A DNA stretch of 64,000 nucleotides, taken from Candidatus Pelearchaeum maunauluense. Its GTDB lineage: Archaea > Thermoproteota > Nitrososphaeria_A > Caldarchaeales > Caldarchaeaceae. Where the stretch lies: NCBI GenBank assembly GCA_030059675.1, contig JANVYQ010000001.1:216753-280752 (forward strand), written 5' to 3'. Shown here piece by piece: positions 1,224-63,630 of the stretch (the first letter of the stretch is position 1; every line of letters begins with the position of its first letter). A program made the position numbers and the translations under genes. The notes beneath the pieces were generated by a model, which had not been told where the DNA came from, did not search any database, and worked only from the letters and a program-made list of their open reading frames with translations.

Positions 1224-1452
1224 ATTCCTTCTCAGATAGGGCTGACCTACAGTATTGTGGATTAAGCTTATCCTTCAAATCTGAAGGCTGAATATAAGCT
1301 TCAGCACATACAATATCTTACGGAAGCTACACGCGAATATGGTTTATGATTGAACCATTATGCTTAAATCATGCTGACAAACTAATTAGTGATTCTCAGA
1401 ACTGCTCCTGACCAGGCGTAGAATACTATTCCTTACGGTTATTGTAATAGTT

Positions 1453-2008
1453 GTGGCCACTTTAGGAGGAGTGATAGCCTATACAGCTCTACAGCCCTCT
1501 TACAAACTAGCAATAGAACTGCCAGGAAACGAGAAACTGAAAAATTTCACACTCACTGACCAGTATGGAAGGAAGTTTCCATATCTTCCGTCGGGGGGAG
1601 GTTGTCCTCCTATATTTTGGCTATACTAACTGTCCAGATATATGCCCACTCGTCATGAGCAGATTCGCATATCTTGAGGAGAAGTTAGGTGATGATATTG
1701 ATGAGGTGGCCATGATTCTTGTGGCTACCGACCCAGAGCGCGACACGCCTGATGCCCTACGGCGTTATGTTGAGCGATATAGTAGTAGGATTATCGCGCT
1801 TACAGGAACACCACAGCAGATTGAGGAAGTCTTGAAGCTATATGGCATATATTCTGAGAAGTCATTAGAGGAGGATAGAGAATATCTCATCCCACATTTC
1901 GCTCTAGTCATAGTTGCTGATAAGAACATGGTTATGCGTTATGCTCTTACGCCTGAGATGGAGCCTGACGAGTATGTGCGGGCTGTTAGATACCTACTTG
2001 AGAGGTGA
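1453..2008 (+). CDS. SCO1/SenC copper chaperone for oxidase assembly, with an apparent +1 frameshift
   Basis: ORF 1565-2008 carries the thioredoxin-like CPDICP motif in VVLLYFGYTNCPDICP. The upstream frame from 1393 encodes a TM helix and ...NFTLTDQYGRKF, which is the start of the same domain. The two frames meet at a G6 run at 1593-1598. The start codon is uncertain, possibly the GTG at 1453. Confidence 0.7.
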
Positions 2009-5304: not shown

Positions 5305-5857
5305 GCGTGGAGCCACATTGACTGTTATTATAGCGGTGTTTGGTAAGAAGAAGAGTGGGAAGACAGCGGTTATAGAAGCATTAATCCGCGCGCTAAACAA
5401 CGATAATCTAACAATAACAGCCGCAAAGCATGTGCATCACGCTGACTTCTCCATAGATAATCCAAGCAAGGATAGCTGGCGATTCGGCAAAGCAGGGGCT
5501 AGGAGAGTCTTCATATTCTCTCCCAACGAGCTCGTTTCCATTGAGAAGACTTCTGGAAATGAGGTTGATGAGGAGAGGCTACTCAATATAATATCAGATT
5601 CGGCTACTGATATAGTGTTCTTGGAGGGGTTTTATCAGACTCTTGCGCGCAATAGCCGTGTCTATAAGCTTGTGGTAGGCCGCGACTCCGGGGATGTTGC
5701 CGATATAGTGAGGGGGTGCCACGAACCATTACTAGGGTGTGCTTTATTGGGTAATGATGACAAATCTAATGAGGTGCTAAAGGCTGGGAAAACATACAAA
5801 CTCTGGGACGATTTTAACGAGCTTGTTAGAGATATTAGAGCGTTGGCGAGGCGTTAA
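5288..5857 (+). CDS. mobB: molybdopterin-guanine dinucleotide biosynthesis protein MobB-like P-loop protein
   Basis: P-loop VIIAVFGKKKSGKT near the N-terminus. Its size and its position after moeA fit MobB. Confidence 0.6.
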   Translation: MYSHYERGATLTVIIAVFGKKKSGKTAVIEALIRALNNDNLTITAAKHVHHADFSIDNPSKDSWRFGKAGARRVFIFSPNELVSIEKTSGNEVDEERLLNIISDSATDIVFLEGFYQTLARNSRVYKLVVGRDSGDVADIVRGCHEPLLGCALLGNDDKSNEVLKAGKTYKLWDDFNELVRDIRALARR

Positions 5858-6108
5858 TACTGGTAGTAATATGATGCTGGTCTTTTTGTGAGCCATCGCG
5901 CTCCTGCAACTAGGTAGATTAATGCGAATATCGCAGCTAGGGCTAGAACAACTAATGATTCTTCTATCGGCCCTCCTCCTATCCGCGAGAGGAATGCAGA
6001 TGGGGTGAGTATGTGTAGTATGCCTGCGAGTATTCCCAAGACGCCGACGGCTTTGGAGCCTGTTCTGCGCGTGGTGAGAAAAGCGGCCAGATATAGTATG
6101 TTGCTCAC
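5854..6108 (-). CDS. small membrane protein; the frame continues upstream across an in-frame TAG to an ATG at 6288
   Basis: 84 aa with 2-3 TM helices and a GTG start. The same frame is open upstream, giving MGWRAG...IFM-TAG-VVSNILY... with the TAG at 6112-6114. This is either two tandem small membrane genes or one 145-codon gene with a nonsense codon. Confidence 0.4.
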   Translation of the reverse strand: MSNILYLAAFLTTRRTGSKAVGVLGILAGILHILTPSAFLSRIGGGPIEESLVVLALAAIFALIYLVAGARWLTKRPASYYYQY

Positions 6109-6323
6109 TACCTACATGAAAATTGGAACTAGAAATGCAACGGCGTATAACACGACAAATGCTAGTCCGCCTAAGCCAGCTCCGCTTAGCTGTGGTGGTG
6201 AGAGGAGTAAGTATAGTAGTATTATTGTGGCGAGGAGCATCAACAGAAATCCTACTGCCGAGGGGGTGATTCCAGCCCTCCACCCCATACGCGGCGCAGC
6301 TTTATTTCTATCTTAAAAATCTT

Positions 6324-6539
6324 CTAACGCGACGCAGAGACTCTACTAGCCATTTTACGTATCTCATCGCGAAGCTGCTTAGCAACATCTAGGATATCGC
6401 GGAAATAGGTTGGCTCAAGCTTTTCAGCCCCATCCCTGATAAGGAGTTGCTCTTCCTCTATTTTCTTCTCCTGAGCATCCAGCTCTATTCCACCCTCTTT
6501 GCGCTGTTCCCCGCTTTTAGTAGCGGTTTTAGCGTTCAT
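6324..6539 (-). CDS. hypothetical small coiled-coil protein
   Basis: 71 aa, charged and coiled-coil-like. It overlaps the next ORF by 11 nt in another frame. It could be the second half of a frameshifted TM plus coiled-coil protein. Confidence 0.25.
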   Translation of the reverse strand: MNAKTATKSGEQRKEGGIELDAQEKKIEEEQLLIRDGAEKLEPTYFRDILDVAKQLRDEIRKMASRVSASR

Positions 6540-6744
6540 TAGGTTCTGCTTTTATCTCGTCTAACGTTTTCTCAAGCTGTTCTAGTTTTTGTTCAAATGG
6601 TGAGAGCATTAGCGTTGGTGGGCGGGATTCTCTCTGCATCATGTTTTCTCTTCTTGTTATGGTGGTTTGTTGCTGGCTTCTCTGATGCGTAGAAGCGGGT
6701 CTGTTTGATGCTATTATTATAACGGCTATGAGCAGGGCTATCAC
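6529..6744 (-). CDS. hypothetical small protein with an N-terminal TM helix and coiled-coil
   Basis: MIALLIAVIIIASN... followed by a ...QKLEQLEKTLDEIK coiled-coil. It lies downstream of the flaJ halves. Confidence 0.25.
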   Translation of the reverse strand: MIALLIAVIIIASNRPASTHQRSQQQTTITRRENMMQRESRPPTLMLSPFEQKLEQLEKTLDEIKAEPNER

Positions 6745-6822
6745 CGCTGCGGTGGCCAGAATCCATGCTAGGGTGTCATTAGCCTGTGGTGGTATTATTG
6801 CGGTTTTCGCCCCCTACGTGGG

Positions 6823-7446
6823 TCATGTGCTCACCAGGCTTGAGAGCTGCCGCCCTATTGAGGCGAATGCATCAAGCACAAAGCCGCTGAGGGCTGCTAC
6901 GCCGAGATACGTTATGCCGCTGACCATCAGCAAGACCTCCGCGTGGAACGTGAAGGTGAATATGGCGTCTCCGTCTGAGAGGTAGATGTTTAGTGCGCTT
7001 ATGACCGCTACGGCCACCGCTATCCAGTAGAAGTATAGGGTTGTTAATGTTGGTGGGATTGGTGTTATGAGTTGAAGGAACTGCGAGACTAGGGAGGATA
7101 TTTCGTTGAATATGCCCATGAGCGAGTTCATTAGGCCGAATATTGCTACCAGCGTCATCTGGAGGGGTATTACCATCCCCTTGAGAACCCCGCTCACTTG
7201 CTTACGCTTCTTATCACGAAGTAGCTGCGTTGTGAGGTACTCGTTCACGACCTCAGCAGCGGTTGTTGGCTTACCGCCTGCGCGTAGCGTCTCGCCATAG
7301 GCGGCCATGCATTTATAGGCGATGTCGCTGAGCGTCTCCACACCGAAGAGCCTCAGCGCATGCGCCTGAGGTATGCCAATCCTTATACGCGCATATAGGT
7401 TTCTAATCAGCGCGTTAAGCGGGCCATAGTCGCTGAGCATCATCAT
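6823..7446 (-). CDS. flaJ: archaellum/type IV pilus membrane protein FlaJ/TadC-like, C-terminal T2SSF-domain half
   Basis: 207 aa polytopic membrane protein with a T2SSF-like helix pattern. Its reading frame stays open 30 codons upstream of MMM and overlaps the end of the preceding T2SSF ORF, which suggests a single flaJ split by a frameshift. Confidence 0.55.
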   Translation of the reverse strand: MMMLSDYGPLNALIRNLYARIRIGIPQAHALRLFGVETLSDIAYKCMAAYGETLRAGGKPTTAAEVVNEYLTTQLLRDKKRKQVSGVLKGMVIPLQMTLVAIFGLMNSLMGIFNEISSLVSQFLQLITPIPPTLTTLYFYWIAVAVAVISALNIYLSDGDAIFTFTFHAEVLLMVSGITYLGVAALSGFVLDAFASIGRQLSSLVST

Positions 7447-7490
7447 CTTGGCCGCGCCAGCGGCCGAGCCTGTGACAGCTATGTAGTCGC

Positions 7491-8402
7491 CTAGGCTCTT
7501 GAAAACATCGGCATATACGCTTCTCTCTCCATAACCAGCCTAACCCATCGCCTGCCAGCTATTCCATGCATCAATAGGGGGGCTGAGGCTATGAGCATGG
7601 AGAGCGGGCCAGGTATCAACGACCTCATCAACAACCCAGCGTCGCTGGGGGCTGGTAGCGTTAGTGGGAGTATGATAAGCACGGCCATGGAAGAGACTAT
7701 GATGATGCGGGAGAGCTGCTCAAGTCTATGTAGTTTCTCAGGCCTATGTGGCTCTTTGTGCATGAGCCTTCTGCGTATGTTGTTCCTTAGAAAGAGAAGC
7801 GTCATGCTGGCTAACGTTGCTATGACTGCCAGGATGGAGATGTTCAGGACGGTAGAAGAGTATTGTGAGCCGTAGATTATCGCCATGAGTAGGAACGCTA
7901 CCGAGAGGAAGCCCATGGAGCTTAGGAGAGCTGAATACGACTCGGCAAGCCTCTTAAGCTTCTCAACCATCTTCTCAAACTCGGCCTCAGGAGACGCCAG
8001 AAACTTCTGGAACTCTATCAGCGTAAAATCGCCAAGACCTACGCCAGCCTGCGCGGCGTGGCTAAGCCTATTGAGAAGCTCGCGGTGGTTTTGGTCTATA
8101 TTATCCGAGGCAGCAGCCCTAAGAGCGGCTGTCTGCAAGTACCCCCACTTCTCAACCATCACCTGTATTTTGGCGAATAGATACGAGACTGGTGTTAGGA
8201 GCTTTTCGCGGCCTAGAATCCGTAGAGCGGTTTTGAGCGGTATCCCTGAAGCTCCTAGGCTTGTTAGGTAGAGTAGTGTTATTGGGTAGAGTTCTGACAG
8301 CCTTCTGTTTAGGGAGAATCGCTTGAGGAGCCTTGTTTTGTGGTTTGTTCTCTTATTTCTGTCTGAGCCATACGCTCTCTCCCCGCTCAACGCGCTCGGC
8401 AA
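7491..8402 (-). CDS. flaJ: archaellum/type IV pilus membrane protein FlaJ/TadC-like, N-terminal T2SSF-domain half
   Basis: 303 aa with cytoplasmic helical domain plus TM pairs typical of the GspF/FlaJ family. It lies directly downstream of the flaI remnants. Together with 6823-7446 it totals about 510 aa, the usual FlaJ size. Confidence 0.6.
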   Translation of the reverse strand: MPSALSGERAYGSDRNKRTNHKTRLLKRFSLNRRLSELYPITLLYLTSLGASGIPLKTALRILGREKLLTPVSYLFAKIQVMVEKWGYLQTAALRAAASDNIDQNHRELLNRLSHAAQAGVGLGDFTLIEFQKFLASPEAEFEKMVEKLKRLAESYSALLSSMGFLSVAFLLMAIIYGSQYSSTVLNISILAVIATLASMTLLFLRNNIRRRLMHKEPHRPEKLHRLEQLSRIIIVSSMAVLIILPLTLPAPSDAGLLMRSLIPGPLSMLIASAPLLMHGIAGRRWVRLVMEREAYMPMFSRA

Positions 8403-10065
8403 CCTTTGCCACGCCCTCGTCGTAGCAGAGCTTCACAACGTTCCAAACCTGCTCGTAGTCGGTTATCCCCAGCTCCACTAGGCGCTGGAGAATCCACGCC
8501 CTCCTCTCCAGCTCGTCATAAACCCGCCGCGCATCGCGGCGCGAGAAACCCATAAGAGTAAGTATCTTGGTCTCAAGAAGAAAGCTGTTTCCCTCACCCC
8601 TAAAACATGCACACCATCAACAGCATCCCAGCTGAAGAGCTCTATGAAGTCAAAACTATCCATGCTTGGGTCGTAGCCCGCCATCTCATTTACGCTCAGT
8701 ATGCGGCGCTCAACCTTCCCTGTCCGCGGTATCCTTACCGCGCTCTGGATTACTACGCAGTTGAGTATATCTATGTAGGTCTTGGGTATGTTTATCGGGT
8801 CTCCCGTGAGGCGTTGTATAACCTTCTCCACAGAGCCTGCGTGGAACGTTGCCAGCACTGGATGCCCTGTCTGCATGGCTTGGAATGCCACCGTGGCCTC
8901 GGCTCCGCGTATCTCGCCGACTATGATGAAGTTCGGCCTCTGCCTAAGCGCCGCCTTGAGCAGGTCAAAGAGCTCCACACTGGGTCCTCCCTGCTCGCCC
9001 TGCCTAGTAACCTCCCTAACCCAGTTGCCGTGGGGGACGATTATCTCAGGCGTGTCCTCTATGCTTATTATCTTGGCCTTTGGGTTGATGAAGACGCAGG
9101 CCGCTCTCAGGGCTGTTGTCTTCCCAGAGGCGGTCTCCCACAGAACCATACACTAAAGCCATACTCAAGCAGTAGCCAGAGGTAGGCAGCCTCAAGGGCG
9201 CTGAGCGTGCCCCACTGTATCAGGCTGGTTATGCTCACAGGCTTCTCGGAGAACTTTCTTATCGTGAAGTTTGAGCCACACCTGCTAATATCGCTGCCGA
9301 ACACTATGTTTATGCGCAAGCCGTCTGGGAGGGGGCGTCGACTATGGGCCGTCTATACGTTACAGGCCTCCCAGCCCTCTCCGAGAGCCTTAAGACAAAG
9401 CCATCAAGCTCCTCCGCGCCATTAAACCTAACGTTAGTCTCACAGCTTCCGAAGATTTTATGCTCAACAAACACGGGCCCGACGCCGTCGCATGGTATAT
9501 CCTCTATGTATTGGTCGCGGATGAACGGCTCAAGCGGGCCTAGATAGACCTTCTCCATGACCATCTCAAAGCGGAGCGCGTCAAACGTTTCCTGATTCAC
9601 GTATATTGCGAGCAGCTTACCCTTACGTCTCGCTTCATTATATTCCCAGAGCTCTAGGCTGTCGTCAACTACTAGAATTTGGTCCAGCAGCTCCATGAGG
9701 AGCTGTTCATGCTCCTCTTTTGTCGCGAATGTTTTGGTAGCGTCTATGAGCGCCGCCATTCCTTCTTCAACCAGCATAAGCAGGTCCCGCGCCTCTGGAG
9801 GAGCTTGCGGCGTTACCGCGTTGTAATACGCGCGCTCACCCTCGCGCGAGTAGACGTGTATGAAGATTGGGACTCCCACTGGGTAGATTATGCTGAAGCT
9901 CTTCTGGTATCGTAGGTCTCTGGAGAGCTGTTCGCGGTACTCTATTGGCCTGCCTGTCCTGCGGCTCCATTCTATGATATACCTCTGTAGATGCGGGAAA
10001 CGCGCGGCTATTCTTCTTATTTCTGCGCCGCCAGCGAGTTTTTGCTGGGAGACCTGAACCGACAT
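8353..10065 (-). pseudogene. flaI: archaellum ATPase FlaI (VirB11/PilB-family secretion ATPase), broken into four frame segments
   Basis: Segments 9310-10065, 9107-9319, 8478-9149 and 8353-8553 read as follows. N-domain ...YIEDIPCDGVGPVFVEHKIFGSCETNVRFNGAEELDGFVLRLSERAGRPVTYRRPIVDA. Then INIVFGSDISRCGSNFTIRKF...LWLLLEY. Then Walker A WETASGKTTAL ...IEDTPEI...RPNFIIVGEIRGAEA...FQAMQTGH. Then C-terminal DARRVYDELERRAWILQRLVELGITDYEQVW. The junctions fall at a C5 run (about 9322), at about 9149/9107, and at a T-run (about 8553). Confidence 0.8.
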
Positions 10066-10078
10066 GTATGGCGCCTCC

Positions 10079-10819
10079 TCATGCTTTGGCCTGTGAGAAT
10101 GGGAGAACCTTTATCCCGAATGCTTGGTCAACCTCAAACGAGAGCGTAAGGCCTCCCTTGAGCTTCATGACTTGGAGAACGCGGACAAGCTTTTCGCCAA
10201 CCTCCTTAACTGAGAGAACAAGATGTGCGTCAGATATTGAGCGGAGACGCAGAAACATATCCTGGTCTACTGCGTATTGGTGGATTGTTATTATGACAGT
10301 TTTTCCATCCTCATCAACTACGTTTCTTATCCGCGTTAGGAAGTTTAGAATTTCCCTAGTATCGGCGTGTGTTAAGAGATATGTGAGCGAGTCCAGTATG
10401 AAGACGTCATGTTTCTTTTCCTGCTTCATGAATGAGGTTATAACGTTTAGCAGTATTGATGATATGTTATCAGCCCACTCAAGCGTCTTGACATGCAGCT
10501 CGCTTATCTTCAAGCTACCGTTAATGAAGTATGGCTTTACGTCCCAAGATAGATTACTCATTCCATAGATTATTCCTTTGAGGCTTGTCTTGGTGGTTAT
10601 GTAATATACTGTAAAGCCGCTTCTTAGAGCACCATAGCAATACTGCATCGCGATTACTGATTTCCCGCTATCGTTGGCTCCTTCTATTAGGCAGAGGGGC
10701 GGGGTTGGTATTCCACCAACCTTCCTGTCCAGCTCGGGGTTGAAGCTCCGTATGACTGCGTCACCCGCCAACCCACTCAGCCCCCACAAAACGAACCAAG
10801 ACTGGATACTGCCCGTCAA
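10079..10819 (-). CDS. flaH: archaellum protein FlaH (KaiC/RecA-like ATPase)
   Basis: 246 aa with Walker A LIEGANDSGKSVIAM in a KaiC-like fold. Positioned between flaF and flaI as in crenarchaeal fla operons. Confidence 0.7.
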   Translation of the reverse strand: MTGSIQSWFVLWGLSGLAGDAVIRSFNPELDRKVGGIPTPPLCLIEGANDSGKSVIAMQYCYGALRSGFTVYYITTKTSLKGIIYGMSNLSWDVKPYFINGSLKISELHVKTLEWADNISSILLNVITSFMKQEKKHDVFILDSLTYLLTHADTREILNFLTRIRNVVDEDGKTVIITIHQYAVDQDMFLRLRSISDAHLVLSVKEVGEKLVRVLQVMKLKGGLTLSFEVDQAFGIKVLPFSQAKA

Positions 10820-11306
10820 TCAAATCATCGAGCCATGCCTCAACCTCTATCGTTTCACGCACATTCCAGATACCAGAATAACCATCAACAAGGTCTATGT
10901 GGTCTAGTAGCTCGCCAGCAAAACCGTTGGTATATACAGCTATTATACGCCATCCCTCTGGTTTCGCCCTACCTGGGTCGTAAGACAGCCATACACTACG
11001 TAAAGCGCCATCAGTCTTTCTTACGTATGTGATTATTACATCAACGTATCTAAAGTTGGCCGCCCTATGCGCGTATGGCCCTTCGTTCTCCACGTAGAAT
11101 TGGATAAGATGGGGCTGGACGACCGTTATGTTTAGTATTTTGTAGTGGTTTTGTCTTAATGCTATTTCTGCTGATTCTATCGTTGATTTCTGTAATTCTA
11201 CCAGCAGGCTACCTGCTGCCGTGAATAGTAATAGGGCTGGGATAAGTGTCATGGCCGCAAGCCACGCAGCAGCTATCGTGGCGAAGCCCGACATGTCGGA
11301 ACACAC
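10761..11306 (-). CDS. flaF: archaellum protein FlaF-like
   Basis: 181 aa with one N-terminal TM helix followed by a beta-rich soluble domain. Gene order G-F-H-I-J. Confidence 0.5.
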   Translation of the reverse strand: MCSDMSGFATIAAAWLAAMTLIPALLLFTAAGSLLVELQKSTIESAEIALRQNHYKILNITVVQPHLIQFYVENEGPYAHRAANFRYVDVIITYVRKTDGALRSVWLSYDPGRAKPEGWRIIAVYTNGFAGELLDHIDLVDGYSGIWNVRETIEVEAWLDDLIDGQYPVLVRFVGAEWVGG

Positions 11307-12481
11307 TATACTGAGAAGTAGTAATCAGACTTCTGGCCCAGATAGGCCACGAACCTAACGAAGTACTCGCCAGCGCTCAACGTGAAGTTAAGCGTAATCG
11401 TTATGAGTAGTGTCTCGCCTGGGTCCCATCTTCCGTCGTTATCAACGTCGTTCATGGCTGTGTATGTCCAGCCCAGTGATGTTCCTTGGTATGGTATACT
11501 TACCAACATGCTTCGGTTCCCTAGGAAGATGTCGGATAGCTTAACCAGCTCTGGGTGTATGTCTGCGCTTCCCGTATTCTTTACCCATGCTCTTACCTCG
11601 CTGCTCCCAGAGGTTGATGTGGCGAATATTATCTCCGTATCTATTGAGAGCTCCTTTTTGAGCCGTTCTATTTTTTCGCGGTGCGCTTGGCCGAGGTCTC
11701 CCAGTGTGGTGAATACCGATGCAGAGAACGCCGACGCAGCCACTATAGCGGCTATCAGGATTATTGCCTCAGCTATCACGTAGCCCGTCGGCATACCCTT
11801 AGAACCCCCAGACTTTCCGTGAATATTGGACTGGCCTGAGAGGCCATGAAGCCTGTCAAACGCCGTGAGGAGAAGCAATAGTAGTGGGCCGTCTTCCTCA
11901 TGCGCTACTTTTGATAGTAGATAGAGAACAACCAACACATTACCCAGACCATAGTTCTTAGGAGCCAGCGACTCGTATTGAAGGCCAAAATCACTTCTGG
12001 CAGAGAGTTCCAGCGCTTCTTTAACGTCATCGGCTATATCCTTAGGCAACAATCCTTTCCAGGCCATCATATTTACTATGTTTAAGACCTGCTCGCGGCC
12101 AACGAGACCTATCATAAGATACGTGGCAGCCATTATGTTTAGGAACCTACCGAGACTTCTCCCCTCTGTTCTACGCGGTATTATTGATAACTGTTCATAA
12201 TGCTGTTTTAAGGGCTCTATCTGCTGATGAGGCTCTTCTTTATGCTGTTCCATGTCGGACTTTTTACTCTGCTGGGTTTTTAGCTCAGGGATGTTTGAGC
12301 CTAGAAGCGCGCTAACATAGGTGAATGGGTTTTCAAGTGTTCCGAGAATTTCACGCACATCTAGGAGTGTCTTCTCTAATGGCTCCTTGAGGCTCTTCAC
12401 CTCTTCCTCAAGTTGCCGCAGTTTCTTTTCTAAAGGGTCGCGGGATGGAATCTCTTCGCCTGCCAATACCTCCACCTCCAA
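11306..12481 (-). CDS. FlaX/FlaCDE-like coiled-coil domain fused to a FlaG-like domain
   Basis: 391 aa. N-terminal coiled-coil KKLRQLEEEVKSLKEPLEKTLLDVREILGTLEN. A FlaD/E-like segment ATYLMIGLVGREQVLNIVNMMAWKGLLPKDIADDVKEAL. C-terminal archaellin-like hydrophobic helix GMPTGYVIAEAIILIAAIVAASAFSASVF plus a beta domain, as in FlaG. Confidence 0.5.
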   Translation of the reverse strand: MEVEVLAGEEIPSRDPLEKKLRQLEEEVKSLKEPLEKTLLDVREILGTLENPFTYVSALLGSNIPELKTQQSKKSDMEQHKEEPHQQIEPLKQHYEQLSIIPRRTEGRSLGRFLNIMAATYLMIGLVGREQVLNIVNMMAWKGLLPKDIADDVKEALELSARSDFGLQYESLAPKNYGLGNVLVVLYLLSKVAHEEDGPLLLLLLTAFDRLHGLSGQSNIHGKSGGSKGMPTGYVIAEAIILIAAIVAASAFSASVFTTLGDLGQAHREKIERLKKELSIDTEIIFATSTSGSSEVRAWVKNTGSADIHPELVKLSDIFLGNRSMLVSIPYQGTSLGWTYTAMNDVDNDGRWDPGETLLITITLNFTLSAGEYFVRFVAYLGQKSDYYFSV

Positions 12482-12490
12482 ACACCCCTA

Positions 12491-13024
12491 TCATTTTGGA
12501 ATCACGACAAACTCGCAATATTCACCACCGTTGAGAATGCATGTACTCTCCCAAACCTCCGCACTGCTCTCCATGTATTTGTTGAAGAGCGCGCGAAGCA
12601 GCCCTTTTATGAAGCAGCAGCCAACACTTGTTCTCTTATGGCTATGCGGCAGATCATTTAGGAGGAATGAAATAGGTATCCAGCCGCTGAGGCGGACAAG
12701 TACTCCTGAGCGTTCTCCGACAAGGCTTCTGAAAACCGCCAGCTCACTTCCAAACTGGCCTTTAATCAGCATGTATTCCCGTAGTAATCTCTCTGAGACC
12801 GTTAGTATATCTCCCTCGGTTTCCTCAACCTCCTCCGAGCACTCATACAGTCTCTCTGCCTCGTATTCGCCTAGTTGCTCCAGCAGGTTGGCCGCCGCGC
12901 GCACACCTATGGAGCGCGCGAGCGAGATTCCGATGAACTGAACAAACGACCTATCAAACAGTATCCTCTCCCTACGCACAGCGGCTCCCTCTGTTTTGAA
13001 GGATTTAAAATGAATCGTATTCAT
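12491..13024 (-). CDS. V4R (4-vinyl reductase) domain protein
   Basis: C-terminal Cys pattern TSVGCCFIKGLLRALFNKYM...TCILNGGEYCEFVV typical of the V4R domain. It sits at the head of the fla accessory operon. Confidence 0.55.
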   Translation of the reverse strand: MNTIHFKSFKTEGAAVRRERILFDRSFVQFIGISLARSIGVRAAANLLEQLGEYEAERLYECSEEVEETEGDILTVSERLLREYMLIKGQFGSELAVFRSLVGERSGVLVRLSGWIPISFLLNDLPHSHKRTSVGCCFIKGLLRALFNKYMESSAEVWESTCILNGGEYCEFVVIPK

Positions 13025-13133
13025 ATCTTATTAAAATAAGATTTGAGATGTATAAAAATTCATAAACAAACTTATTTAGAATACTACTGAAATAATGATA
13101 AAAATACAACAGGATAATTGGAAAAGCAAAAAG

Positions 13134-13902
13134 ATGGAGACGGGGATTAACTGGGCTTGAGACAGCGATTATACTGATAGCCTTCGTCATCGTCGCCAGC
13201 GCCTTCGCCGTAGTCAGCAGTTTCAAGATAGATAGACTTCAGATGGAGGGGTTTTCCCCAGGCCTAAGGCTCTTCCAAGAGCTTATGGGGGCTTGGGGTG
13301 GGTTCACCCTGACAGGGGATGAGGCTGACGAGGGCTCCGATGAACTCATGAGGAGCCCGAGGCTGATGAATCCCAAGACTTACGTATGTCTATGAAAGAC
13401 TACGTAGGTCAGAACCCGTCCTAAATCTGGACATGTTCACGACGCAGAAGAGCTCAGAAGCCATGCAGGCTGGCTTGCAGGGGTCGCTCAGCTCTATAGA
13501 GATTGCGGGCGCGGTCATAGCCCAGGCCGACACAACTGTAACGCCAGCTAAGGTGAAGAATATCACCATACACATCAAGACGGCTGTCGGGAAGGCAGCC
13601 CCATAGACATGTCAAAGGATAAGCTCGTAATAGCCTACCGAGACCCCAACACGTTCCTAGAGAACATCTACACAGATACGTACATTCTTAACAATAACAT
13701 AACCGTAGCAGAAGTAACAGGCGATGGCGACTCTGTGCTGGAGTATGGTGAGGTCTGGAAAATCGTCATAGCCATACCAGAGCTGGCCAACCTAAACCCC
13801 AACGACATATTCGCGGTGGAGATAAAGCCACCTGTAGGCTCGCTACTGAAGGTTGAGCGAAGGCTACCACCCGCCTTCGACGCTGTTATGGACCTGACCT
13901 AA
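13134..13902 (+). pseudogene. flaB: archaellin (FlaB) with class III signal peptide, disrupted by an internal insertion of about 196 nt and by frameshifts
   Basis: Frame 1 (13102-13395) reads KRWRRGLTGLETAIILIAFVIVASAFAVVSS, which matches archaellin N-termini. Frame 2 (13418-13606) reads VLNLDMFTTQKSSEAMQAGLQGSLSSIEIAG...NITIHIKTAVGKAAP. Frame 1 again (13609-13902) gives the C-terminal domain ...VTGDGDSVLEYGEVWKIVIAIP... The ATG at 13134 is out of frame by one base. The mid/C junction is at a C4 run (13599-13602). Confidence 0.75.
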
Positions 13903-13969
13903 CCCCAAAATCCCACACCATTTTTATGGCTAATACTAATATAGTGAGCCACGTCGCTGCACTACGTTT

Positions 13970-14950
13970 ATGACGCTGCTCACAGAACTGGCATACGCGG
14001 GGCTCATCATAATAGCCTCATTTGGCATTGCTTCATTATCTTGGGTTATTCTAAAGAGATACGCGACCTCATGGGTTACGAAGACCAAAACACCGCTTGA
14101 CGATATCATCATACAAGTAGTGAGGCTACCGCTCTACCTATCCATACTACTGGTGGGCATTAACCTAGCTCTTAAGAGGATTGGCATTTTTGAGCCGTAT
14201 CTACGCTACCTGGACATGGGATTCTATGCCATGTGGGCAGTCATCATCGGCCGCATATTTTACCGATTCACCGACTCGGCTGTTCCAGTACTGGCTAGGA
14301 AGGCCGATATACCGCTAACCCCCGCTGAAGTGATTAGAAAGACGATAAAGTGGATAATCATAATCGCCATCATAGTATCGCTCTTCGCTATAGTAGGAAT
14401 AGAGATGAGCGGCGTCATCTCTGTGATAATGCTAGTCCTGGGCACCCTGATAATCCTAGCATTCGCAACGTGGAGCATAATGGGCAACATAACCGCTGGC
14501 GTAGTTCTAATGATATGGAGACCCATAGAGGTCGGAGACTATATAGAGATAAGCCCAGACAACATACAAGGCCGCGTGGAAAACATCAACCTAATGTTCA
14601 CACGCCTCCGTATGAAGACTGGTGAGACGATGAACATACCAAACACCATGGTTCTCCAGAAGTATGTGCGAAACCTCAGCAAGTCAGGAACCTACCTGAT
14701 ACAGCTCTCCTACAAGTTCAACGTCTCGCAAGACCCTGAGACCGTGTCAGCTCTGCTTATAGACGCTGCCGAGAAGACCGAGGGAATCCTCAAGAACCCC
14801 AGGCCATTCGTCAAGGTTAAGAATATTGAAGACGACTCTGTGGTTTACGAGCTGAATGCGTATATAAACAGGCCTGCCGACCACGAGGAGATAACCTCTA
14901 CACTCAGGTTAAATGTGCTTAAAACACTCAAGTCATCTCAAGGACATTAG
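13970..14950 (+). CDS. mscS: small-conductance mechanosensitive channel MscS family
   Basis: 326 aa with three N-terminal TM helices, then an MscS beta-domain with ITAGVVLMIWRPIEVGDYIEI...QGRVENINLMFTRLR. Confidence 0.8.
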   Translation: MTLLTELAYAGLIIIASFGIASLSWVILKRYATSWVTKTKTPLDDIIIQVVRLPLYLSILLVGINLALKRIGIFEPYLRYLDMGFYAMWAVIIGRIFYRFTDSAVPVLARKADIPLTPAEVIRKTIKWIIIIAIIVSLFAIVGIEMSGVISVIMLVLGTLIILAFATWSIMGNITAGVVLMIWRPIEVGDYIEISPDNIQGRVENINLMFTRLRMKTGETMNIPNTMVLQKYVRNLSKSGTYLIQLSYKFNVSQDPETVSALLIDAAEKTEGILKNPRPFVKVKNIEDDSVVYELNAYINRPADHEEITSTLRLNVLKTLKSSQGH

Positions 14951-14952
14951 CC

Positions 14953-15934
14953 ATGCAGGGTATGGAGACTAGGGAGCACGCGTTAATAGGGCTTGTGATA
15001 ATCTCGATAATAATAGCTACTGGCTCTATCTTATTCTCATTCATGAAGGGCATAAACATCTTTGACGCGTTCTACTGGACGATAACTGTATTGACAACGA
15101 TTGGCTTTGGGAATATTGTACCAACGACTCCACAGGCTAAGATTCTGTATATAGCGCTGGTAGTGTCGGGTATAGCGTTTTATGGCTATTTCGTAACCAG
15201 CATAAGCGAGTCAAAGCCGAAAACATCTTAGCAGCGTATTTGCCTGGGATATACATGTCGCGTAGGTTGCAGAACCATACGATAATAATTGGCTGGAATA
15301 GGTTCTCTGAGGCTGCCTATGAATAGCTGGAGATAAACGGCAGAAATCCAGTCGTTGTTGTTGAGGATGAAGAGAGGGCGCGTATGCTCTCTAGGAGCGG
15401 TGTTAGGGTTATGTATGGCGACCCCGCAGATGAGAATATTCTAAAAGAAGCGGGGATAGGTGGATGTAGTTCTCTATAATCATAACTGATGTAAATACTG
15501 AGAAGAAGCTTATCTATATGCTCAAGACACGAAAGCTACGCGGGGGTGTTCCTATCATAGTTCTGAGCAGGAAGCGGGGGATGCGCGACATCTATAAACA
15601 AGCGGGAGCAACGCGCATAGTTGACGCATACGATATTGTTGGAAGGCTTCTGGCGGGAAGTGTCTTTGAGCCGCTAGCGAGTGAGGTTTTATATGATATG
15701 GCTGAATCCTCCAAGGATCTAGACATAACCGAGGCGGGGGTAGGAGTAGAAGCAACGATAGAAGAGCTGGAGCAGCAAGGATTCAAAGCACACATAATAC
15801 TCGTAGAACGGAACAATGAGAGAATATACACGCCACCATATAATTTCAGGCTAAAACCTGGCGATAAGGTTGTTTTGGTTGGAAATGCCAGCGATATAGC
15901 TAGGGACTTGAGAATGCTCGGCGGTGGGTCATAG
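14953..15934 (+). pseudogene. MthK-like K+ channel (pore + RCK/TrkA-N + TrkA-C), with two frameshifts and an in-frame TAG
   Basis: Pore ORF 14953-15231 carries the selectivity filter TVLTTIGFGN. The RCK continues in shifted frames: HTIIIGWNRFSEAAYE-TAG(15324-15326)-LEINGRNPVVVVEDEERARMLSRSGVRVMYGDPADENILKEAGIGG, then 15479-15934 ...IYMLKTRKLRGGVPIIVLS... plus a TrkA-C domain. The junctions are at an A4 run (15220-15223) and near 15471-15478. Confidence 0.75.
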
Positions 15935-36927: not shown

Positions 36928-37622
36928 ATGTTTAAGAACGGCCAAGAGATGGATTGGTTGAGAGCCTGTATAATGAGCATAGATATTGAAGACATAATTA
37001 AGAGAGCTGTCACCGCCGCGAGAACCGAAGAGCTCCGCATGATGGCTGAAGCCGTTAAGTCATTAGCCGAGTATATGCGCGACGGCTTCCAAAAGATTAA
37101 CCAACGATTAGAGGAGAACTCAAAGATACTCGCAGAACACTCAAACAGCTAGAGGTTCATTCAAGACAGTTAGAGGCCCATTCAAGGTATCTTGAGAGAC
37201 TCGTCAACGAGGTGGGTGGATTGAAGACCATGTTAGGCTCCTTTACGTCTAGGTCTGGTGTCCATATGGAGAGAATGGTGCTGGAGCTTCTTAGAAAAAC
37301 GCTCCTAGAACGTGTGGCTATTGATGTGGATAGTATTGAAAAGCGGAGCTTCGTAGATGAGCGTGGTGAGCTTGTTCAAGAATGCCACAAGATAGAGATA
37401 GATATCTACATGACGGACAAGCAAGCTTATGCGCTGGAAGTTAAAACGCTTGTCGAGAGCAAGGATGTGGATTGGATTGTAGCTAAAAAGAGGTTCTTGG
37501 AGCGTAGTTATAATATGCGCGCTAGGTGGCTTATTGTGGCTTCGGCGATAACGCAAGAAGCGTATATGAAGGCTATTAAGGGGGGTATTGAGGTTGTCTG
37601 CAGGAGTATAGTGGGCGAGTAG
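36928..37622 (+). CDS. DUF3782-like protein: coiled-coil repeats plus C-terminal PD-(D/E)XK-like domain, with an apparent -1 frameshift
   Basis: ORF 36928-37152 (...QRLEENSKILAEHSNS-stop) continues in the next frame as ...KQLEVHSRQLEAHSRYLERLVNEVGGLKTM... into ORF 37212-37622. The junction is an A3 run near 37145. The C-terminal motif EIDIYMTDKQAYALEVK is nuclease-fold-like. Confidence 0.55.
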
Positions 37623-38479: not shown

Positions 38480-39352
38480 TCAACAATTTATTTGACGTAG
38501 AACTCTCTCTATTAGATTCTCCCGCCTACTCAGCGCCGCCAGGGCTGTCAAAACCCCTAGTGAGATGTCTATCCCAGAGTTGTGTCCGCGCTGCGCCAAA
38601 GCTAGAATACAATCCATAAATCCCTCACCATCTTCATCATGTATTGATATTAGCAGACTGGCCAGCGTCTCATCAACAATCCCGTGTTGGGCATAGTCTA
38701 TGAGTAGGGCGCTGGCCCAGCTGGTATATTTTAGGAGAGTGTTTCTATCTATTGTTATCTTATGTTTTGTTAGTGCGTTTATTGTGGTGAGGAAGCCTGC
38801 TATGAAGTCGTCGCCTGATGGTGTGAATCCCCCTCCAAGCCCAAGTAGAGGTGTGTAGTTGTCCAGTTTGCTGGCTGTTTGGGTATTTCCGCGTGAGAGT
38901 GGAGTGATTACATTCTGTATGAATTGCTTAAACTCGTGTGTTGCTGGTAGCTGTATGGGGTTTTGTGATGTTTCGTAAAGTAGGCTGAGCATAAAGGCTG
39001 CTTCCGTGATATAATCTTCCAACGACGTAAAGCTTGGCTCACCACTAAAAATGGGAATGCTCGGCTCATACACGTAAGCCCCACGCAGCTCAATCTCCAC
39101 ATTACCTAGGAAGAGCTTGTCATCTATCCTCTTTAGAGAATCACCAACATTTACCCACGCTTTGAGAGACGCCTGCAACTCTCGCAGGCCTATGTTTATG
39201 GGTGCTCGCGGACTTTTCCGCGATATTACCAGAAGCTCGCTGTCTTTCTCTATGTAGATTGTGTTTTTGAATACGTGCTTAACTATTCCAGTTTCTCCGT
39301 TTTGTAGGTTTTTGAGGGCTAGTGAGCCTATATAGCTGGCGGCTAGCCTCAT
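38480..39352 (-). CDS. DUF2877-family protein (AllH/YlbF-like)
   Basis: 290 aa. Size and position next to the DUF1116 and FdrA genes match the conserved FdrA-DUF1116-DUF2877 triad. Confidence 0.45.
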   Translation of the reverse strand: MRLAASYIGSLALKNLQNGETGIVKHVFKNTIYIEKDSELLVISRKSPRAPINIGLRELQASLKAWVNVGDSLKRIDDKLFLGNVEIELRGAYVYEPSIPIFSGEPSFTSLEDYITEAAFMLSLLYETSQNPIQLPATHEFKQFIQNVITPLSRGNTQTASKLDNYTPLLGLGGGFTPSGDDFIAGFLTTINALTKHKITIDRNTLLKYTSWASALLIDYAQHGIVDETLASLLISIHDEDGEGFMDCILALAQRGHNSGIDISLGVLTALAALSRRENLIERVLRQINC

Positions 39353-40611
39353 AGTTTGTACTTCTCCGCGTAGCTGCGGAGAGCGTCGCGGAACATCTCT
39401 ATTGGGAGGCTCACTATGCCAGCGCCTATCTGGCCAACTCCAGCCTGCTTATGCGCTATCCCAGTGTTAATCGTGGGCGTAATCCCAGTCTTCAAAACCT
39501 TCCTAATATCAACACCTGTGGGTGTTCCCTGGAAGTTGAGGTAGGGTATCTGGAAATACTTGTGCTTTGTGTATGTTATCTCGTACATTTTTTGAGTTGT
39601 CTCTATTGCTAGCTTCACGCTCCCGCCTACCCACGAGACTATCGCTGGCGCCGCGGCCATCGCGAAGCCTCCGAAGCCTGCTGTCTCGGTTATCGCGCTG
39701 TCGCCCAAATCTGGGTTCGCATCGGCGTCACTGAAGCCTGGGAACAATACGCCGCGCGGTATGGGCGCTGGGGCGGTGAACCACTTATCACCAAGCCCGC
39801 TCACCCAAATACCTGTATCAGTACCATTACGCGACATAACCGTAACTATTGTGCTGTGCTCTATGTTGTGCGCTGCTAGCGTCATGGCTTTCGCCGCTGC
39901 CATGCCTAGATTGAGCGCTGTGAAGTTGTTAGCATTCATGAAGCTGTATGCTTCCCTCACCATGTTTGTATCCACTCCACAGCGCATCATGTAGGGCGTT
40001 ATCTCGCGTAGTAGTAGTGATGTGGCCGCAACATAGCGGTTGTGGCAGTCATCACCCATCTGGAGAGCCTGCGCTATTATAGGCTTGAGAGCAACACCAC
40101 CCCTATCGCTAACCACCTCGCGTATAGTAGCTTCAAGAACTGGATAAAGCACGTCGGACATCCACCTAAGCCTATCCAGAACCTCTTTATCATAAGCGCC
40201 GTACCTGAGGACCTTACCTATTCCTTCGTTGAGGTTTGAGTATGTTTTGTTTCCCCAGCGGCGGTCGTGTATCTCATAAACGGGCATGCTGGGTGAGATT
40301 ATGCCGCACATGGGGCCGACTGCGTTGTGGTGGTGTGTGGGCTCCAGCTTGACCTGGCCGTTCTTCACCAGCTTCTCAGCCTCTTCCTGCGTTGTTGCCC
40401 AGCCCTCGTAGATTATCGCTCCTATAACGGCGCCGCGCATGGGGCCGCTGGCGCGCTCCCACTCAAGCGGAGGCCCAGCATGAAGAAGCAAATACTCGCG
40501 CATCCCAGGAATCTTATCACGCGCAAGTCCAACCCCAACCCACACAGGGTCGGACTCCATCATCCGCTCAACAGCCTCGCCGTTGGCCTTCTCAACCTCC
40601 TCCCTAACCAT
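39349..40611 (-). CDS. DUF1116-family protein (AllG/YlbE-like)
   Basis: 420 aa. Overlaps the DUF2877 gene by 4 nt. Confidence 0.5.
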   Translation of the reverse strand: MVREEVEKANGEAVERMMESDPVWVGVGLARDKIPGMREYLLLHAGPPLEWERASGPMRGAVIGAIIYEGWATTQEEAEKLVKNGQVKLEPTHHHNAVGPMCGIISPSMPVYEIHDRRWGNKTYSNLNEGIGKVLRYGAYDKEVLDRLRWMSDVLYPVLEATIREVVSDRGGVALKPIIAQALQMGDDCHNRYVAATSLLLREITPYMMRCGVDTNMVREAYSFMNANNFTALNLGMAAAKAMTLAAHNIEHSTIVTVMSRNGTDTGIWVSGLGDKWFTAPAPIPRGVLFPGFSDADANPDLGDSAITETAGFGGFAMAAAPAIVSWVGGSVKLAIETTQKMYEITYTKHKYFQIPYLNFQGTPTGVDIRKVLKTGITPTINTGIAHKQAGVGQIGAGIVSLPIEMFRDALRSYAEKYKL

Positions 40612-40684
40612 ATCCCAAAATCCACGAATGTCCTACACTATTAAGTTGATTACCAGCCAGAAAACACTCTATCAGGAGAAGCTT

Positions 40685-41308
40685 ATGGCAGCAAGGCATA
40701 AAGACCCACATTATCTATTTCTGCTTTTCCTAAGCATTCCCATGTTTATCTGGTATGATAAACAGGCTCTAACAGCCCTCCAAAACATGGCCATCGACAA
40801 ATCGGGTAATGCTGTATTTCTGAGTGAAAATCAGGTTATTTATCCATTCACCTATGCTGGCGCTCTCCTAACGATATTAGGCATTACCAGCCTGATGGCG
40901 CGTAGGTATGGTTTCAGCATAAGTAATTTGATTGTAAGTCTACTCTTGGGTAGGGCTGTTGCGGGTGCTCTAATCGTGGTTTATGAGCAAATATTCACTC
41001 TGTTGGGCAGTATCGTGTGGAAGGAGAACGTATGGCTGCTATATTATGGGGATATTGAGACTTTACTATGGAATGCGGCGAAGGTAGGTTTTCTAATAAC
41101 ACTATTACCCCACATAAACCCAAACATGAAATACTACACCACACTCATACTAGCTACATACTTCATACTCATGATTTCATGGATGGCTTTGGGAATGAGG
41201 CCACCACATCAAGACGCCCTGAACTATGCATTAAATGCGACAACACGGCTCTTGCTACATGCTGTGCCTTTAACATTATTACTACGGGGGCGGGGATTCC
41301 AAGCTTAG
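40685..41308 (+). CDS. hypothetical polytopic membrane protein
   Basis: About 6 TM helices. ATG chosen at 40685 (MAARHKDPHYLF...) to avoid overlap with the divergent gene. Confidence 0.4.
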   Translation: MAARHKDPHYLFLLFLSIPMFIWYDKQALTALQNMAIDKSGNAVFLSENQVIYPFTYAGALLTILGITSLMARRYGFSISNLIVSLLLGRAVAGALIVVYEQIFTLLGSIVWKENVWLLYYGDIETLLWNAAKVGFLITLLPHINPNMKYYTTLILATYFILMISWMALGMRPPHQDALNYALNATTRLLLHAVPLTLLLRGRGFQA

Positions 41309-41379
41309 GAGTCTATTCTCATGACGTTTTATGCTCTTATTGGAGACTATATAAGTTGTTGCATACTTCTGACTAGCTG

Positions 41380-48732: not shown

Positions 48733-48905
48733 GCACTATATACCTGCTGGGCTATACTCAGCGCGTCCTCAGCGTCAAGACGTGTATAAGGCTCCTCTGG
48801 CGGTGTTCCTGTCTTCATACATACTAAGCTCTCTTTCGCGTCTGCATGTATTAATCGTTCCTCAACCTGCCTTAGGTATGAGCGCACCATGTAAAGGTTA
48901 TTCAA
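48705..48905 (-). CDS. possible HEPN-like partner of the adjacent nucleotidyltransferase
   Basis: A 66 aa ORF immediately downstream of the MNT gene. It overlaps the MNT stop and the peptidase start. Weak helical HEPN-like N-terminus only. Confidence 0.2.
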   Translation of the reverse strand: MNNLYMVRSYLRQVEERLIHADAKESLVCMKTGTPPEEPYTRLDAEDALSIAQQVYSACRSLHGEI

Positions 48906-49405: not shown

Positions 49406-49463
49406 TAGAGTAGCCTGGGTTAAAAGAACTCCCTCTTCAAGCTTTTAAGACTCTTGGTCTTTT

Positions 49464-61728: not shown

Positions 61729-61989
61729 GGTGCCACATCCTATCTTGAGGGGTAGGCCGTGATGGAGGTGTTCACGAAGAGAAGGACGAACTCTACTAGG
61801 CTTAGCCTAGAGTAGTGCAGCAATGTTCCAGTCTTGTCGTTAAAGCTCCCACCACATCCCCTGCAGAGATACCTACCCCACCTCTTAAACAACCCCTTAT
61901 CCAGACACTATTGTTAAAGTTTAAAAATAACTTAATCGAATAGTATGAATGGATAAGACAAGCCGCAGGGCCCTCGAATGGGGGCTCTG

Positions 61990-62490: not shown

Positions 62491-62503
62491 TACCCGCTCC
62501 AAA

Positions 62504-63598: not shown

Positions 63599-63630
63599 AA
63601 TATTTAAAAATAGTGTTTAGCACCGAACAT

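Follow-up and report, generated by a model that had tools for sequence, protein, structure and literature searches.

An Arl2-type archaellum operon with interrupted filament, motor ATPase and platform genes in a Caldarchaeales archaeon

Gene content and order of the archaellum locus

The window analyzed here, a single stretch of 64,000 nucleotides, comes from an uncultured hot-environment archaeon of the Caldarchaeales (Aigarchaeota) and harbors an archaellum operon of the Arl2 (crenarchaeal) type; the anatomy of this locus, the orthology of its genes and the positions of its lesions were established as listed in Table 1. Gene families and gene order were assessed with Pfam and NCBIfam profiles and by tblastn with the proteins of relatives. 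Profiles and synteny agreed on the content and order proposed in a first-pass annotation of the same DNA, i.e., a divergent archaellin gene followed by genes for a V4R protein, a FlaX/G-like protein, FlaF, FlaH, FlaI and FlaJ. In relatives, ArlB, with its class III signal peptide, would form the filament, and ArlJ would serve as the membrane platform. The hexameric ATPase ArlI, modulated by ArlH, would power both assembly and rotation, with ArlX, ArlG and ArlF making up the ring and the stator.

Table 1. Positions and state of the genes and features of the archaellum locus and of other damaged genes in the window
Feature	Position	Strand	State and evidence
SCO1	about 1.58 kb		frameshifted
Small conserved gene after arlJ	6324-6744	-	split; ORFs 6529-6744 and 6324-6539, frames overlapping at 6532-6551
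arlJ/flaJ, membrane platform protein	6823-8402	-	ORFs 7491-8402 and 6823-7446; one frameshift, T4 run 7502-7505
arlI/flaI, motor and assembly ATPase	8353-10065	-	four frame segments: 9310-10065, 9107-9319, 8478-9149 and 8353-8553
arlH/flaH, KaiC-like ATP-binding protein	10079-10819	-	intact; probably TTG start near 10786
arlF/flaF-like stator protein	10761-11306	-	intact; single-frame match to 173/176-aa gene at the same position in L082/L081
arlX-arlG single ORF, 391 aa	11306-12481	-	intact; Pfam PF01917, weak ArlG/ArlF matches
V4R-domain protein, operon head	12491-13024	-	intact; Pfam V4R; position conserved in L082/L083 and L084
arlB/flaB, archaellin	13095-13902	+	divergent, disrupted; tblastn frames and TIGR02537
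Insert inside arlB	13212-13419	+	208 nt, after residue 37; contains a stop codon
K+ channel gene (Ion_trans_2, TrkA_N and TrkA_C), not motility	14962-15931	+	Pfam; tblastn with 328-aa L081 ortholog matches in three frames
DUF3782/PD-(D/E)XK gene	about 37.1 kb		frameshifted
Nucleotidyltransferase	about 49.3 kb		frameshifted

As in known Arl2 clusters, seven components occur in identical order, arlX replaces arlCDE, arlG precedes arlF, there is one archaellin gene with a class III signal peptide, and no peptidase gene lies inside the cluster. The order of an arlX domain, a PF01917 domain (ArlG) and a gene at the ArlF position was read from synteny and similarity, as there is no curated model of ArlX. 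In contrast to known Arl2 clusters, arlB is transcribed divergently and separated from arlX by a V4R-domain gene, arlX and arlG form one ORF, and arlB, arlI and arlJ are interrupted and nonfunctional as written. The lineage-specific V4R protein may be a regulator.

Intact syntenic arl clusters were present in the Caldarchaeales contigs L081 and L082/L083 and in Caldarchaeum metagenome-assembled genomes (MAGs). Gene order was identical in L081, L082/L083 and L001/L002 (65 to 78% identity for ArlI, 69 to 74% for ArlH and 65 to 77% for archaellin), and L081 also has the neighboring MscS and K+ channel genes in common with the window. In all of these contigs, however, the genes are single uninterrupted ORFs and the 208-nt insert is lacking. 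The comparison with relatives, which the first-pass annotation had set as a test, thus yielded intact orthologs and no identical split ORFs. A split organization was found in none of 97 ArlI and none of 119 archaellin homologs. Searching a metagenome collection with a wobble-degenerate 50-nt arlI pattern yielded no contig of the same population, and exact look-ups of three proteins of the window gave no match.

Four stretches of the operon are intact. ArlH scored 254.7 bits against the NCBIfam FlaH model NF004723 (cut-off, 194), matched Pfam KaiC (E = 1.3e-22) and was 74% identical to FlaH of L081 in a single frame; its start was considered as a further lesion and dismissed, as a plausible TTG start lies where the N termini of L081 and L082 begin. 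No curated family in Pfam or NCBIfam matched ArlF. In the arlX-arlG ORF, the N-terminal 226 residues match the gene at the arlX position of L081, L082 and L084, and residues 235 to 374 form an archaellin-like domain. Relative to L084, the arlX stop codon has been removed by two 1-nt indels 10 nt apart. Since arlX and arlG are likewise one ORF in L002 and L008 (two genes in L081, L082 and L084), we regard the fusion as a natural variant and not as a lesion.

Interrupted genes in and around the operon

The split of FlaI into four frame segments reported in the first-pass annotation was confirmed, and its breaks were mapped against orthologs to three 1-nt indels, in a C5 run (9331-9335), a G3 run (9137-9139) and a T4 run (8602-8605). 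These three shifts add up to a multiple of three, and the first and last segments are in a common frame. Upon repair, ArlI was 571 aa long, aligned end to end with intact homologs of 553 to 572 aa (97 to 99% coverage), and was 78% identical to the intact homolog P0001 (likewise 78% for the ArlI of L081). Repaired ArlI scored 637.5 bits against the FlaI equivalog model NF058587 of NCBIfam (cut-off, 550), covering positions 2 to 525 of 527. The Walker motifs are intact, and the frame breaks separate Walker A from the N-terminal domain.

FlaJ had appeared to be split in two, and we indeed found a single frameshift. By tblastn with the 521-aa FlaJ of L082, residues 8 to 298 matched in frame -3 and residues 295 to 519 in frame -2, with 50 to 61% identity. 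Repaired ArlJ covered positions 10 to 463 of 465 of NCBIfam model NF004705 at 230 bits, which is below the cut-off of 400, and its match to Pfam T2SSF was also below the cut-off; judged by synteny, the predicted orthology to ArlJ is clear. We do not count the arlJ start as a lesion, because a plausible TTG start is found at the position matching the N termini of L081 and L082. An ATG ("MAQ") near this start, in another frame, resembles the start of L081; L082 aligns with the TTG-start frame.

The archaellin gene is broken into three parts and carries an insertion, in agreement with the first-pass annotation, and, in addition, the frame of its signal peptide is without a start codon. This frame (frame 1), open from 13102, has no ATG, GTG or TTG to start from, and the ATGs nearby, 13095 and 13134, belong to frame 3. 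The middle part (13418-13594) is in frame 2 and the C-terminal part (13597-13899) is again in frame 1, with the change of frame at about 13594 to 13602. The archaellin has a signal peptide of class III (type IV pilin-like), whose motif RRG|LTGLETAIILIAFVIVASAF aligns with 119 archaellins. Upon repair it scored 30.8 bits against the N-terminal domain model TIGR02537 (cut-off, 20) and was 65 to 77% identical to the archaellins of relatives; in a protein search with the repaired archaellin, the closest matches were 76 to 77% identical and no high-identity fragments were found.

The 208-nt insert is GC rich, folds strongly (z = -4.3) and is flanked by a 4-nt direct repeat (CCGT). It replaces one TTCGCC repeat, and at this site arlB has lost invariant A-F residues (a 6-nt loss). 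The insert is absent from all 119 homologous archaellins, has no second copy in the window or in 84 fetched loci, shares no exact 24- to 31-mers with viral or metagenome collections, and shows no terminal inverted repeat. Rfam contains no family for it, the sole match being a C/D box at chance level (E = 3.8). Excision of exactly 208 nt rejoins the frame of the arlB N terminus with that of the middle part. We considered an archaeal bulge-helix-bulge (BHB) intron and rejected it, since the motif (helix, 3-nt bulge, 4-bp helix and 3-nt bulge) is missing at the boundaries: scanning 13150-13260 against 13330-13470 gave no motif with 208-nt spacing, and the best candidates lay off the insert boundaries, with helices of 2 to 5 bp.

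Damage is not limited to the operon. SCO1, the DUF3782/PD-(D/E)XK gene and the nucleotidyltransferase gene are frameshifted at 1576-1580, 37143-37145 and 49297-49303, respectively. Both halves of the small gene after arlJ match one single-frame 161-aa ORF of L082. The K+ channel gene has frameshifts at approximately 15213 to 15215 and approximately 15471 to 15475 and a nonsense codon at 15324 to 15326 (GAG to TAG; L081 has E). MscS near the locus is intact and is interleaved with broken genes. Truncated relics in the window comprise a 5'-truncated ABC-2 permease and UPF0261, IS1595-like and NYN fragments. The first-pass annotation had missed the lesions of the K+ channel gene, the split small gene, the three distant frameshifted genes and the natural arlX-arlG ORF.

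Distribution of the lesions and traces of selection

Nine of the 12 frame-breaking indels lie within 15% of the window (6.3 to 15.9 kb), a density 17-fold higher than elsewhere (binomial P = 5.5e-6). The stretch shows no compositional discontinuity, and no repeat or mobile element bounding it was found. The lesions are mostly 1- to 2-nt indels at short mononucleotide or dinucleotide runs, with apparent +2 dinucleotide events among them; at least seven of the nine local indels lie in mononucleotide runs, and most shifts are at runs of 3 to 4 bases. Indels at short runs are the signature of spontaneous mutation described for hyperthermophilic archaea without MutS and MutL. Of 156 homopolymer runs of at least 5 bases in the window, nearly all are in frame within intact genes, and the assembly is not generally error prone at homopolymers. 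Zero hits in the lesion-free arlH, arlF, arlXG and V4R genes had a probability of about 0.02 to 0.03, and the intact genes interleaved with the broken ones span 3.9 kb.

As the first-pass annotation had stated, the neighboring ilvD, atpI, moeA and cdc6 genes are intact, with their Pfam profiles fully covered. Its claim that lesions are concentrated in the motility locus held for the clustering, which is significant, but not for motility, as the K+ channel gene is equally damaged and other genes are frameshifted. The K+ channel gene and distant genes are also frameshifted and relics are present; therefore, the pattern is one of locally clustered lesions amid decay scattered over other genes, and not motility-specific erosion.

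Synonymous divergence (dS) of the broken genes from L081 was saturated, and relative-rate and conserved-column tests were used instead. ArlI had 37 lineage-unique residues, versus 37 in the sister lineage, with two substitutions (S250L and D485G) at positions that do not vary among 97 homologs, and the arlJ N terminus showed no acceleration. In arlB, lineage-unique residues numbered 17, versus 7 in the sister lineage; of 64 conserved columns, five carried private changes, which places arlB third of 120, and G43D and E60G affect sites invariant in 119 of 119 homologs. Compared with L084 (sample ERZ23495177; 88% DNA identity, dS of about 0.5), which spans only V4R to the start of arlF, i.e., intact genes, dN/dS was 0.064 for V4R and ranged from 0.06 to 0.08 for V4R, arlX and arlG. 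Relaxed selection on motility, as proposed in the first-pass annotation, is thus in line with the changes in arlB at invariant sites, but ArlI shows no excess of substitutions and dN/dS is low in V4R, arlX and arlG. The description of the cluster as heavily decayed proved too strong: apart from small indels its genes are well preserved, as seen from the ArlI residue counts, the intact Walker motifs and the lesion-free accessory genes.

Origin of the lesions

Deletion of any arl gene abolishes archaellation (PMC10117864). ArlB, ArlI and ArlJ, which are indispensable for forming an archaellum, are each interrupted; therefore, the organelle could not be built as encoded. The locus has probably been pseudogenized recently by frameshifts in homopolymers, with a recent loss of motility, and we infer from the genome sequence that the lesions are present in the organism, which would then be nonmotile. 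In this course of events, arlB apparently died first, as suggested by its substitutions at invariant sites, the 6-nt loss and the 208-nt insertion, and the frameshifts that are the only damage of arlI and arlJ, next to accessory genes still intact, would point to recent inactivation. One local burst of lesions would also have inactivated two neighbors, the gene for the K+ channel and the small one after arlJ, which would make this a case of regional decay over a genome-wide background of scattered pseudogenes rather than of erosion restricted to motility. Several observations speak against pseudogenization: ArlI has no more amino-acid changes than its sister lineage, the lesion-free accessory genes, with low dN/dS in V4R, arlX and arlG, are uneven for an operon expected to be uniformly neutral once dead, and single-base lesions in homopolymers, which some sequencing chemistries also yield, make up most of the damage.

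In a rather unlikely rival explanation, the frameshifts are consensus errors in a stretch of locally low assembly quality, and the archaellum works. Such a stretch could stem from poor coverage, from strains that differ at a surface-structure island or from long reads left unpolished. The share of local indels in mononucleotide runs would fit such errors, as would the confinement of the lesions to 9.6 kb, with an unrelated gene among those hit, the otherwise functional appearance of the broken genes (repaired ArlI passes the equivalog cut-off without excess substitutions) and the strong purifying selection on the neighboring arl genes. The longest runs should then err most, yet practically none of the 156 runs of at least 5 bases is out of frame. 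Homopolymer miscalls also leave unexplained the GAG-to-TAG substitution, the structured insert with its 6-nt A-F loss, the apparent +2 events, the changes at positions constant across 119 and 97 homologs and the absence of errors over the interleaved intact genes, and the truncated relics elsewhere represent real decay in this genome. That the interrupted genes are still functional by recoding (programmed frameshifting, transcriptional slippage, BHB splicing of the insert or split polypeptides) is hardly credible: exact removal of the strongly structured insert restores the arlB frame from the N terminus to the middle, and the net shift over arlI is a multiple of three, but no BHB motif puts splice sites at the insert boundaries, Rfam gave no match, arlI, whose breaks cut Walker A off the N-terminal domain, would require three separate recoding events at runs of only 3 to 5 bases, and no homolog of either protein is so organized.

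A regionally elevated mutation rate, e.g., transcription- or replication-associated frameshift mutagenesis over approximately 10 kb, could account for the lesions instead of relaxed selection on motility. The density excess does reach the small gene after arlJ and a functionally unrelated gene, that of the K+ channel, and the two 1-nt indels that compensate each other where arlX meets arlG suggest that further indels were tolerated by selection. We consider such a local rate very unlikely, as intact genes (MscS, arlH, arlF, arlXG and V4R) are interleaved with the broken ones and the stretch has neither a compositional discontinuity nor a bounding repeat or mobile element; the sample is also too small to tell mutation rate from selection. 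Also improbable is a reading in which either the insert is a small Caldarchaeales element, mobile or of structured RNA, of a type not described before, and its arrival was the primary event inactivating the archaellum, or the 10-kb cluster is a regional hotspot of frameshift mutagenesis and not a product of relaxed selection.

Recent pseudogenization, the reading we prefer, is an event of a known kind and leaves the current view of archaella and of gene decay unchanged. A laboratory strain of Pyrococcus furiosus lost its archaella via several arl frameshifts (Lewis et al. 2015, as cited in PMC10117864). As far as that citation goes, both loci accumulated arl frameshifts in a cluster that is still recognizable; the P. 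furiosus lesions arose in laboratory culture and their phenotype was confirmed, whereas the present genome is environmental and known from assembled sequence. Nonmotile bacteria such as Salmonella Gallinarum/Pullorum and Aeromonas salmonicida likewise keep a complete motility locus inactivated by frameshifts or nonsense mutations, with other pseudogenes alongside, but there the machinery is unrelated (the bacterial flagellum) and the driver is host restriction.

If the lesions are real, this Caldarchaeales lineage would have become nonmotile very recently, with close relatives that have intact archaella. The locus would then be a small but clean record of how the death of an archaeal motility operon proceeds, from the filament gene to the motor ATPase and platform genes, with accessory genes intact, and frameshifts at short runs would be the mutational signature of this death. 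Metabolic or ecological reconstructions that take the arl genes of this genome as a sign of motility would in that case be wrong. Automated gene calls at the arl locus will list fragments.

Gene content of the archaellum cluster

Genes of the cluster were identified by ORF listing and family searches, which placed the minus-strand genes in window 6823-13024 and found the archaellum components in the order proposed in the first-pass annotation. When conceptually joined across its frame changes (repaired), ArlI scored 637 bits against a cut-off of 550 for the NCBIfam FlaI equivalog; ArlH and the N-terminal domain of repaired archaellin also exceeded the cut-offs of their models (TIGR02537 for the latter), and repaired ArlJ covered its full model with a score below the cut-off. 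For arlH and arlJ, TTG start codons agree with the N-termini of the relatives' proteins and were rejected as lesions.

Identical gene order, with each gene a single ORF, was found in three contigs of relatives (L081 and the JGI contigs L082 and L083): archaellin (194 to 197 aa, divergent), V4R protein where present, arlX, arlG, arlF, arlH (234 to 237 aa), arlI (569 to 571 aa), and arlJ (521 aa). L081 also has genes for MscS and the K+ channel next to its archaellin gene. Among genomes sampled at one per species, the best matches of repaired ArlI were from Candidatus Caldarchaeum MAGs (65 to 67% identity). In a large protein collection the best was P0001, encoded on L081 (78%), and many intact homologs of 553 to 572 aa spanned 95 to 99% of the query; ArlI of L082/L083 was 67% identical. 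On these matches the window was assigned to an uncultured archaeon of the Caldarchaeales (Aigarchaeota). The cluster is an ordinary member of the Arl2 (crenarchaeal) family as present in other Caldarchaeales, whose loci share their arrangement with S. acidocaldarius, in which deletion of any arl gene leads to loss of archaellation (PMC10117864). The V4R-domain protein, weakly similar to the redox regulator MsvR at the latter's V4R end, is also encoded in L082 (7072-7593) and in L084, a locus of 88%-identical DNA (1-519), and is absent from L081; a role as a lineage-specific regulator of the archaellum is possible.

Features of the archaellum locus and of damaged or mobile genes elsewhere in the window
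Feature	Position	Strand	Remarks
SCO1/SenC	1393-2008	+	Frameshift about 1576-1580; beside intact cox genes
Small gene after arlJ	6324-6744		Split; one 161-aa ORF in L082
arlJ	within 6823-13024	-	Two ORFs, T2SSF matches
arlJ, sole frame change	7502-7505	-	T4 run; tblastn and frame inspection
arlI	within 6823-13024	-	Four ORFs, T2SSE and PilB3_C matches
arlI, frame change 3	8602-8605	-	T4 run; tblastn and frame inspection
arlI, frame change 2	9137-9139	-	G3 run; directly before Walker A, GETASGKTT
arlI, frame change 1	9331-9335	-	C5 run; tblastn and frame inspection
arlH	within 6823-13024	-	KaiC-like
arlF-position gene	within 6823-13024	-	
391-aa ORF	within 6823-13024	-	C-terminal half an archaellin-like (PF01917) ArlG domain
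V4R-domain gene	12491-13024	-	Between arlB and arlX
arlB pieces (archaellin)	13095-13902	+	Divergent from minus-strand genes
arlB, insert	13212-13419		208 nt, GC-rich; CCGT direct repeat at both flanks
arlB, further frame change	about 13594-13602	+	
K+ channel gene	14962-15931	+	Ion_trans_2/TrkA_N/TrkA_C; adjoins archaellum locus
DUF3782/PD-(D/E)XK gene	36928-37622	+	Frameshift 37143-37145; four xHSxQLE heptads regained on repair
Nucleotidyltransferase	48898-49436	-	Frameshift about 49297-49303, inside GSxARG motif
ABC-2 permease ORF	54507-55001	-	Only profile positions 77-208 of 211 matched
Tyrosine integrase	62504-63598		Abuts tRNA-Lys (63630-63706)

Lesions in the locus and its neighbors

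To catalogue lesions, the window was searched by tblastn with proteins of the relatives, and all three frames were inspected. The splits of ArlI (FlaI) into four and of ArlJ into two segments, and the broken, insert-bearing archaellin, were all recovered as first described. The arlB frame KRWRRG|LTGLETAIIL opens at 13102 without a start codon, and neither of the ATGs at 13095 and 13134 is in frame with the signal peptide. Of 64 columns with conservation of 97% or more across 119 homologs, the archaellin departs at 5 (rank third of 120; median, 0); these departures include loss of an invariant A-F, and the substitutions G43D and E60G, both at sites invariant in 119 of 119.

The insert contains a stop codon and takes the place of one TTCGCC repeat. 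It has several near-perfect hairpins, with an RNA minimum free energy of -86.8 kcal/mol (z = -4.3 in sense and -2.9 in antisense relative to shuffled controls). No homologs were found in the window, the fetched loci, archaellin homologs, or viral and metagenome collections (the latter two by exact 24- to 31-mers), and the sole Rfam match, sR30, was at chance level (E = 3.8). An intron was rejected, since no bulge-helix-bulge that splices at the insert boundaries is possible; the insert could be a small mobile or structured element.

The K+ channel gene changes frame twice, near 15213-15215 and again near 15471-15475, where the change resembles gain of a CT dinucleotide. It also has a TAG at 15324-15326, at a position occupied by glutamate (GAG) in L081. 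MscS, which lies between this gene and arlB, is intact. Relative to L084 (1195-1225), two 1-nt indels 10 nt apart in window 11795-11830 (minus strand) remove the arlX stop and keep the arlG frame; this single arlX-arlG ORF was rejected as a lesion because two further relatives' loci (L002 and L008) share it, the genes being separate in L081, L082, and L084.

Decay or consensus artefact

Nine of the 12 frame-breaking indels fell within 6327-15931, or 15% of the window (P = 5.5e-6), a density of 0.94 per kb compared to 0.055 per kb elsewhere. Most frameshifts lie at runs of three or four bases, whereas the longer homopolymer runs of the window (133 of 5 nt, 22 of 6 nt, and one of 7 nt) are almost all in frame, which argues against a chemistry-driven homopolymer error process. 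Moreover, homopolymer miscalls cannot explain the nonsense substitution, the insert and accompanying 6-nt loss, or the apparent +2 events. As read from the assembled sequence, the lesions probably reflect real and recent pseudogenization. A dead gene in a hyperthermophilic archaeon without MutS and MutL would be expected to gain exactly such lesions and few substitutions.

A local consensus artefact seems unlikely. Some observations nevertheless count against real decay or are left unexplained by it. ArlI has no overall excess of change (37 lineage-unique residues versus 37 in the sister), dN/dS relative to L084 is 0.064 to 0.076 for V4R, arlX, and arlG (dS, 0.37 to 0.60), and arlH, arlF, arlXG, and V4R (2.9 kb) carry zero lesions (P about 0.02 to 0.03), even though they should be neutral once filament and motor were lost. 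In favor of real decay, arlB changed at conserved columns and has 17 unique residues versus 7 in the sister, and ArlI carries S250L and D485G at sites invariant across 97 homologs.

The interpretation first proposed, that motility was lost recently as selection relaxed, is the best-supported one, with three amendments: the damage to the locus is light and recent, not the heavy decay first described; it reaches non-motility neighbors (the K+ channel gene and the small gene after arlJ); and it occurs amid other pseudogenes. Events of this kind are well known: they occur in many non-motile bacteria, and a laboratory strain of P. furiosus likewise has arl frameshifts (PMC10117864).

The rest of the window

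Genes were mapped by simple codon usage, and essentially all remaining ORFs were scanned against Pfam. Full profile coverage was obtained for ilvD, atpI, moeA, and cdc6, in agreement with their initial description as intact, and for mobB, tmk, an HD-domain gene, a nifU-like gene, an aldo-keto reductase, prephenate dehydratase, two CitMHS transporters, allG/allH/fdrA-like genes, an amidase, an M24 peptidase, nadE, and endonuclease V. Frameshifts in SCO1, the DUF3782 gene, and the nucleotidyltransferase, together with relics, make confinement of the damage to the motility locus too strong a claim, although the enrichment within 6327-15931 holds. The ABC-2 permease ORF, with no upstream space for the missing ~76 profile positions and no ATPase partner nearby, is probably a truncated relic. 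Fragments of UPF0261_C and of an IS1595-like transposase occur upstream of the integrase, along with an NYN gene truncated at its 5' end; the region as a whole (60967-63706) probably represents a degraded integrated element.

At 5854-6288 (minus strand), two small ORFs for membrane proteins (58 and 84 aa) share a frame, with only a TAG (6112-6114) and one codon between them. They represent either a single gene broken by a nonsense codon or two separate genes, and had no homologs among the fetched loci. At 38480-43002, cyclase, AllH, AllG, and FdrA-like (CoA-ligase fold) genes of the oxamate carbamoyltransferase type all appear intact.
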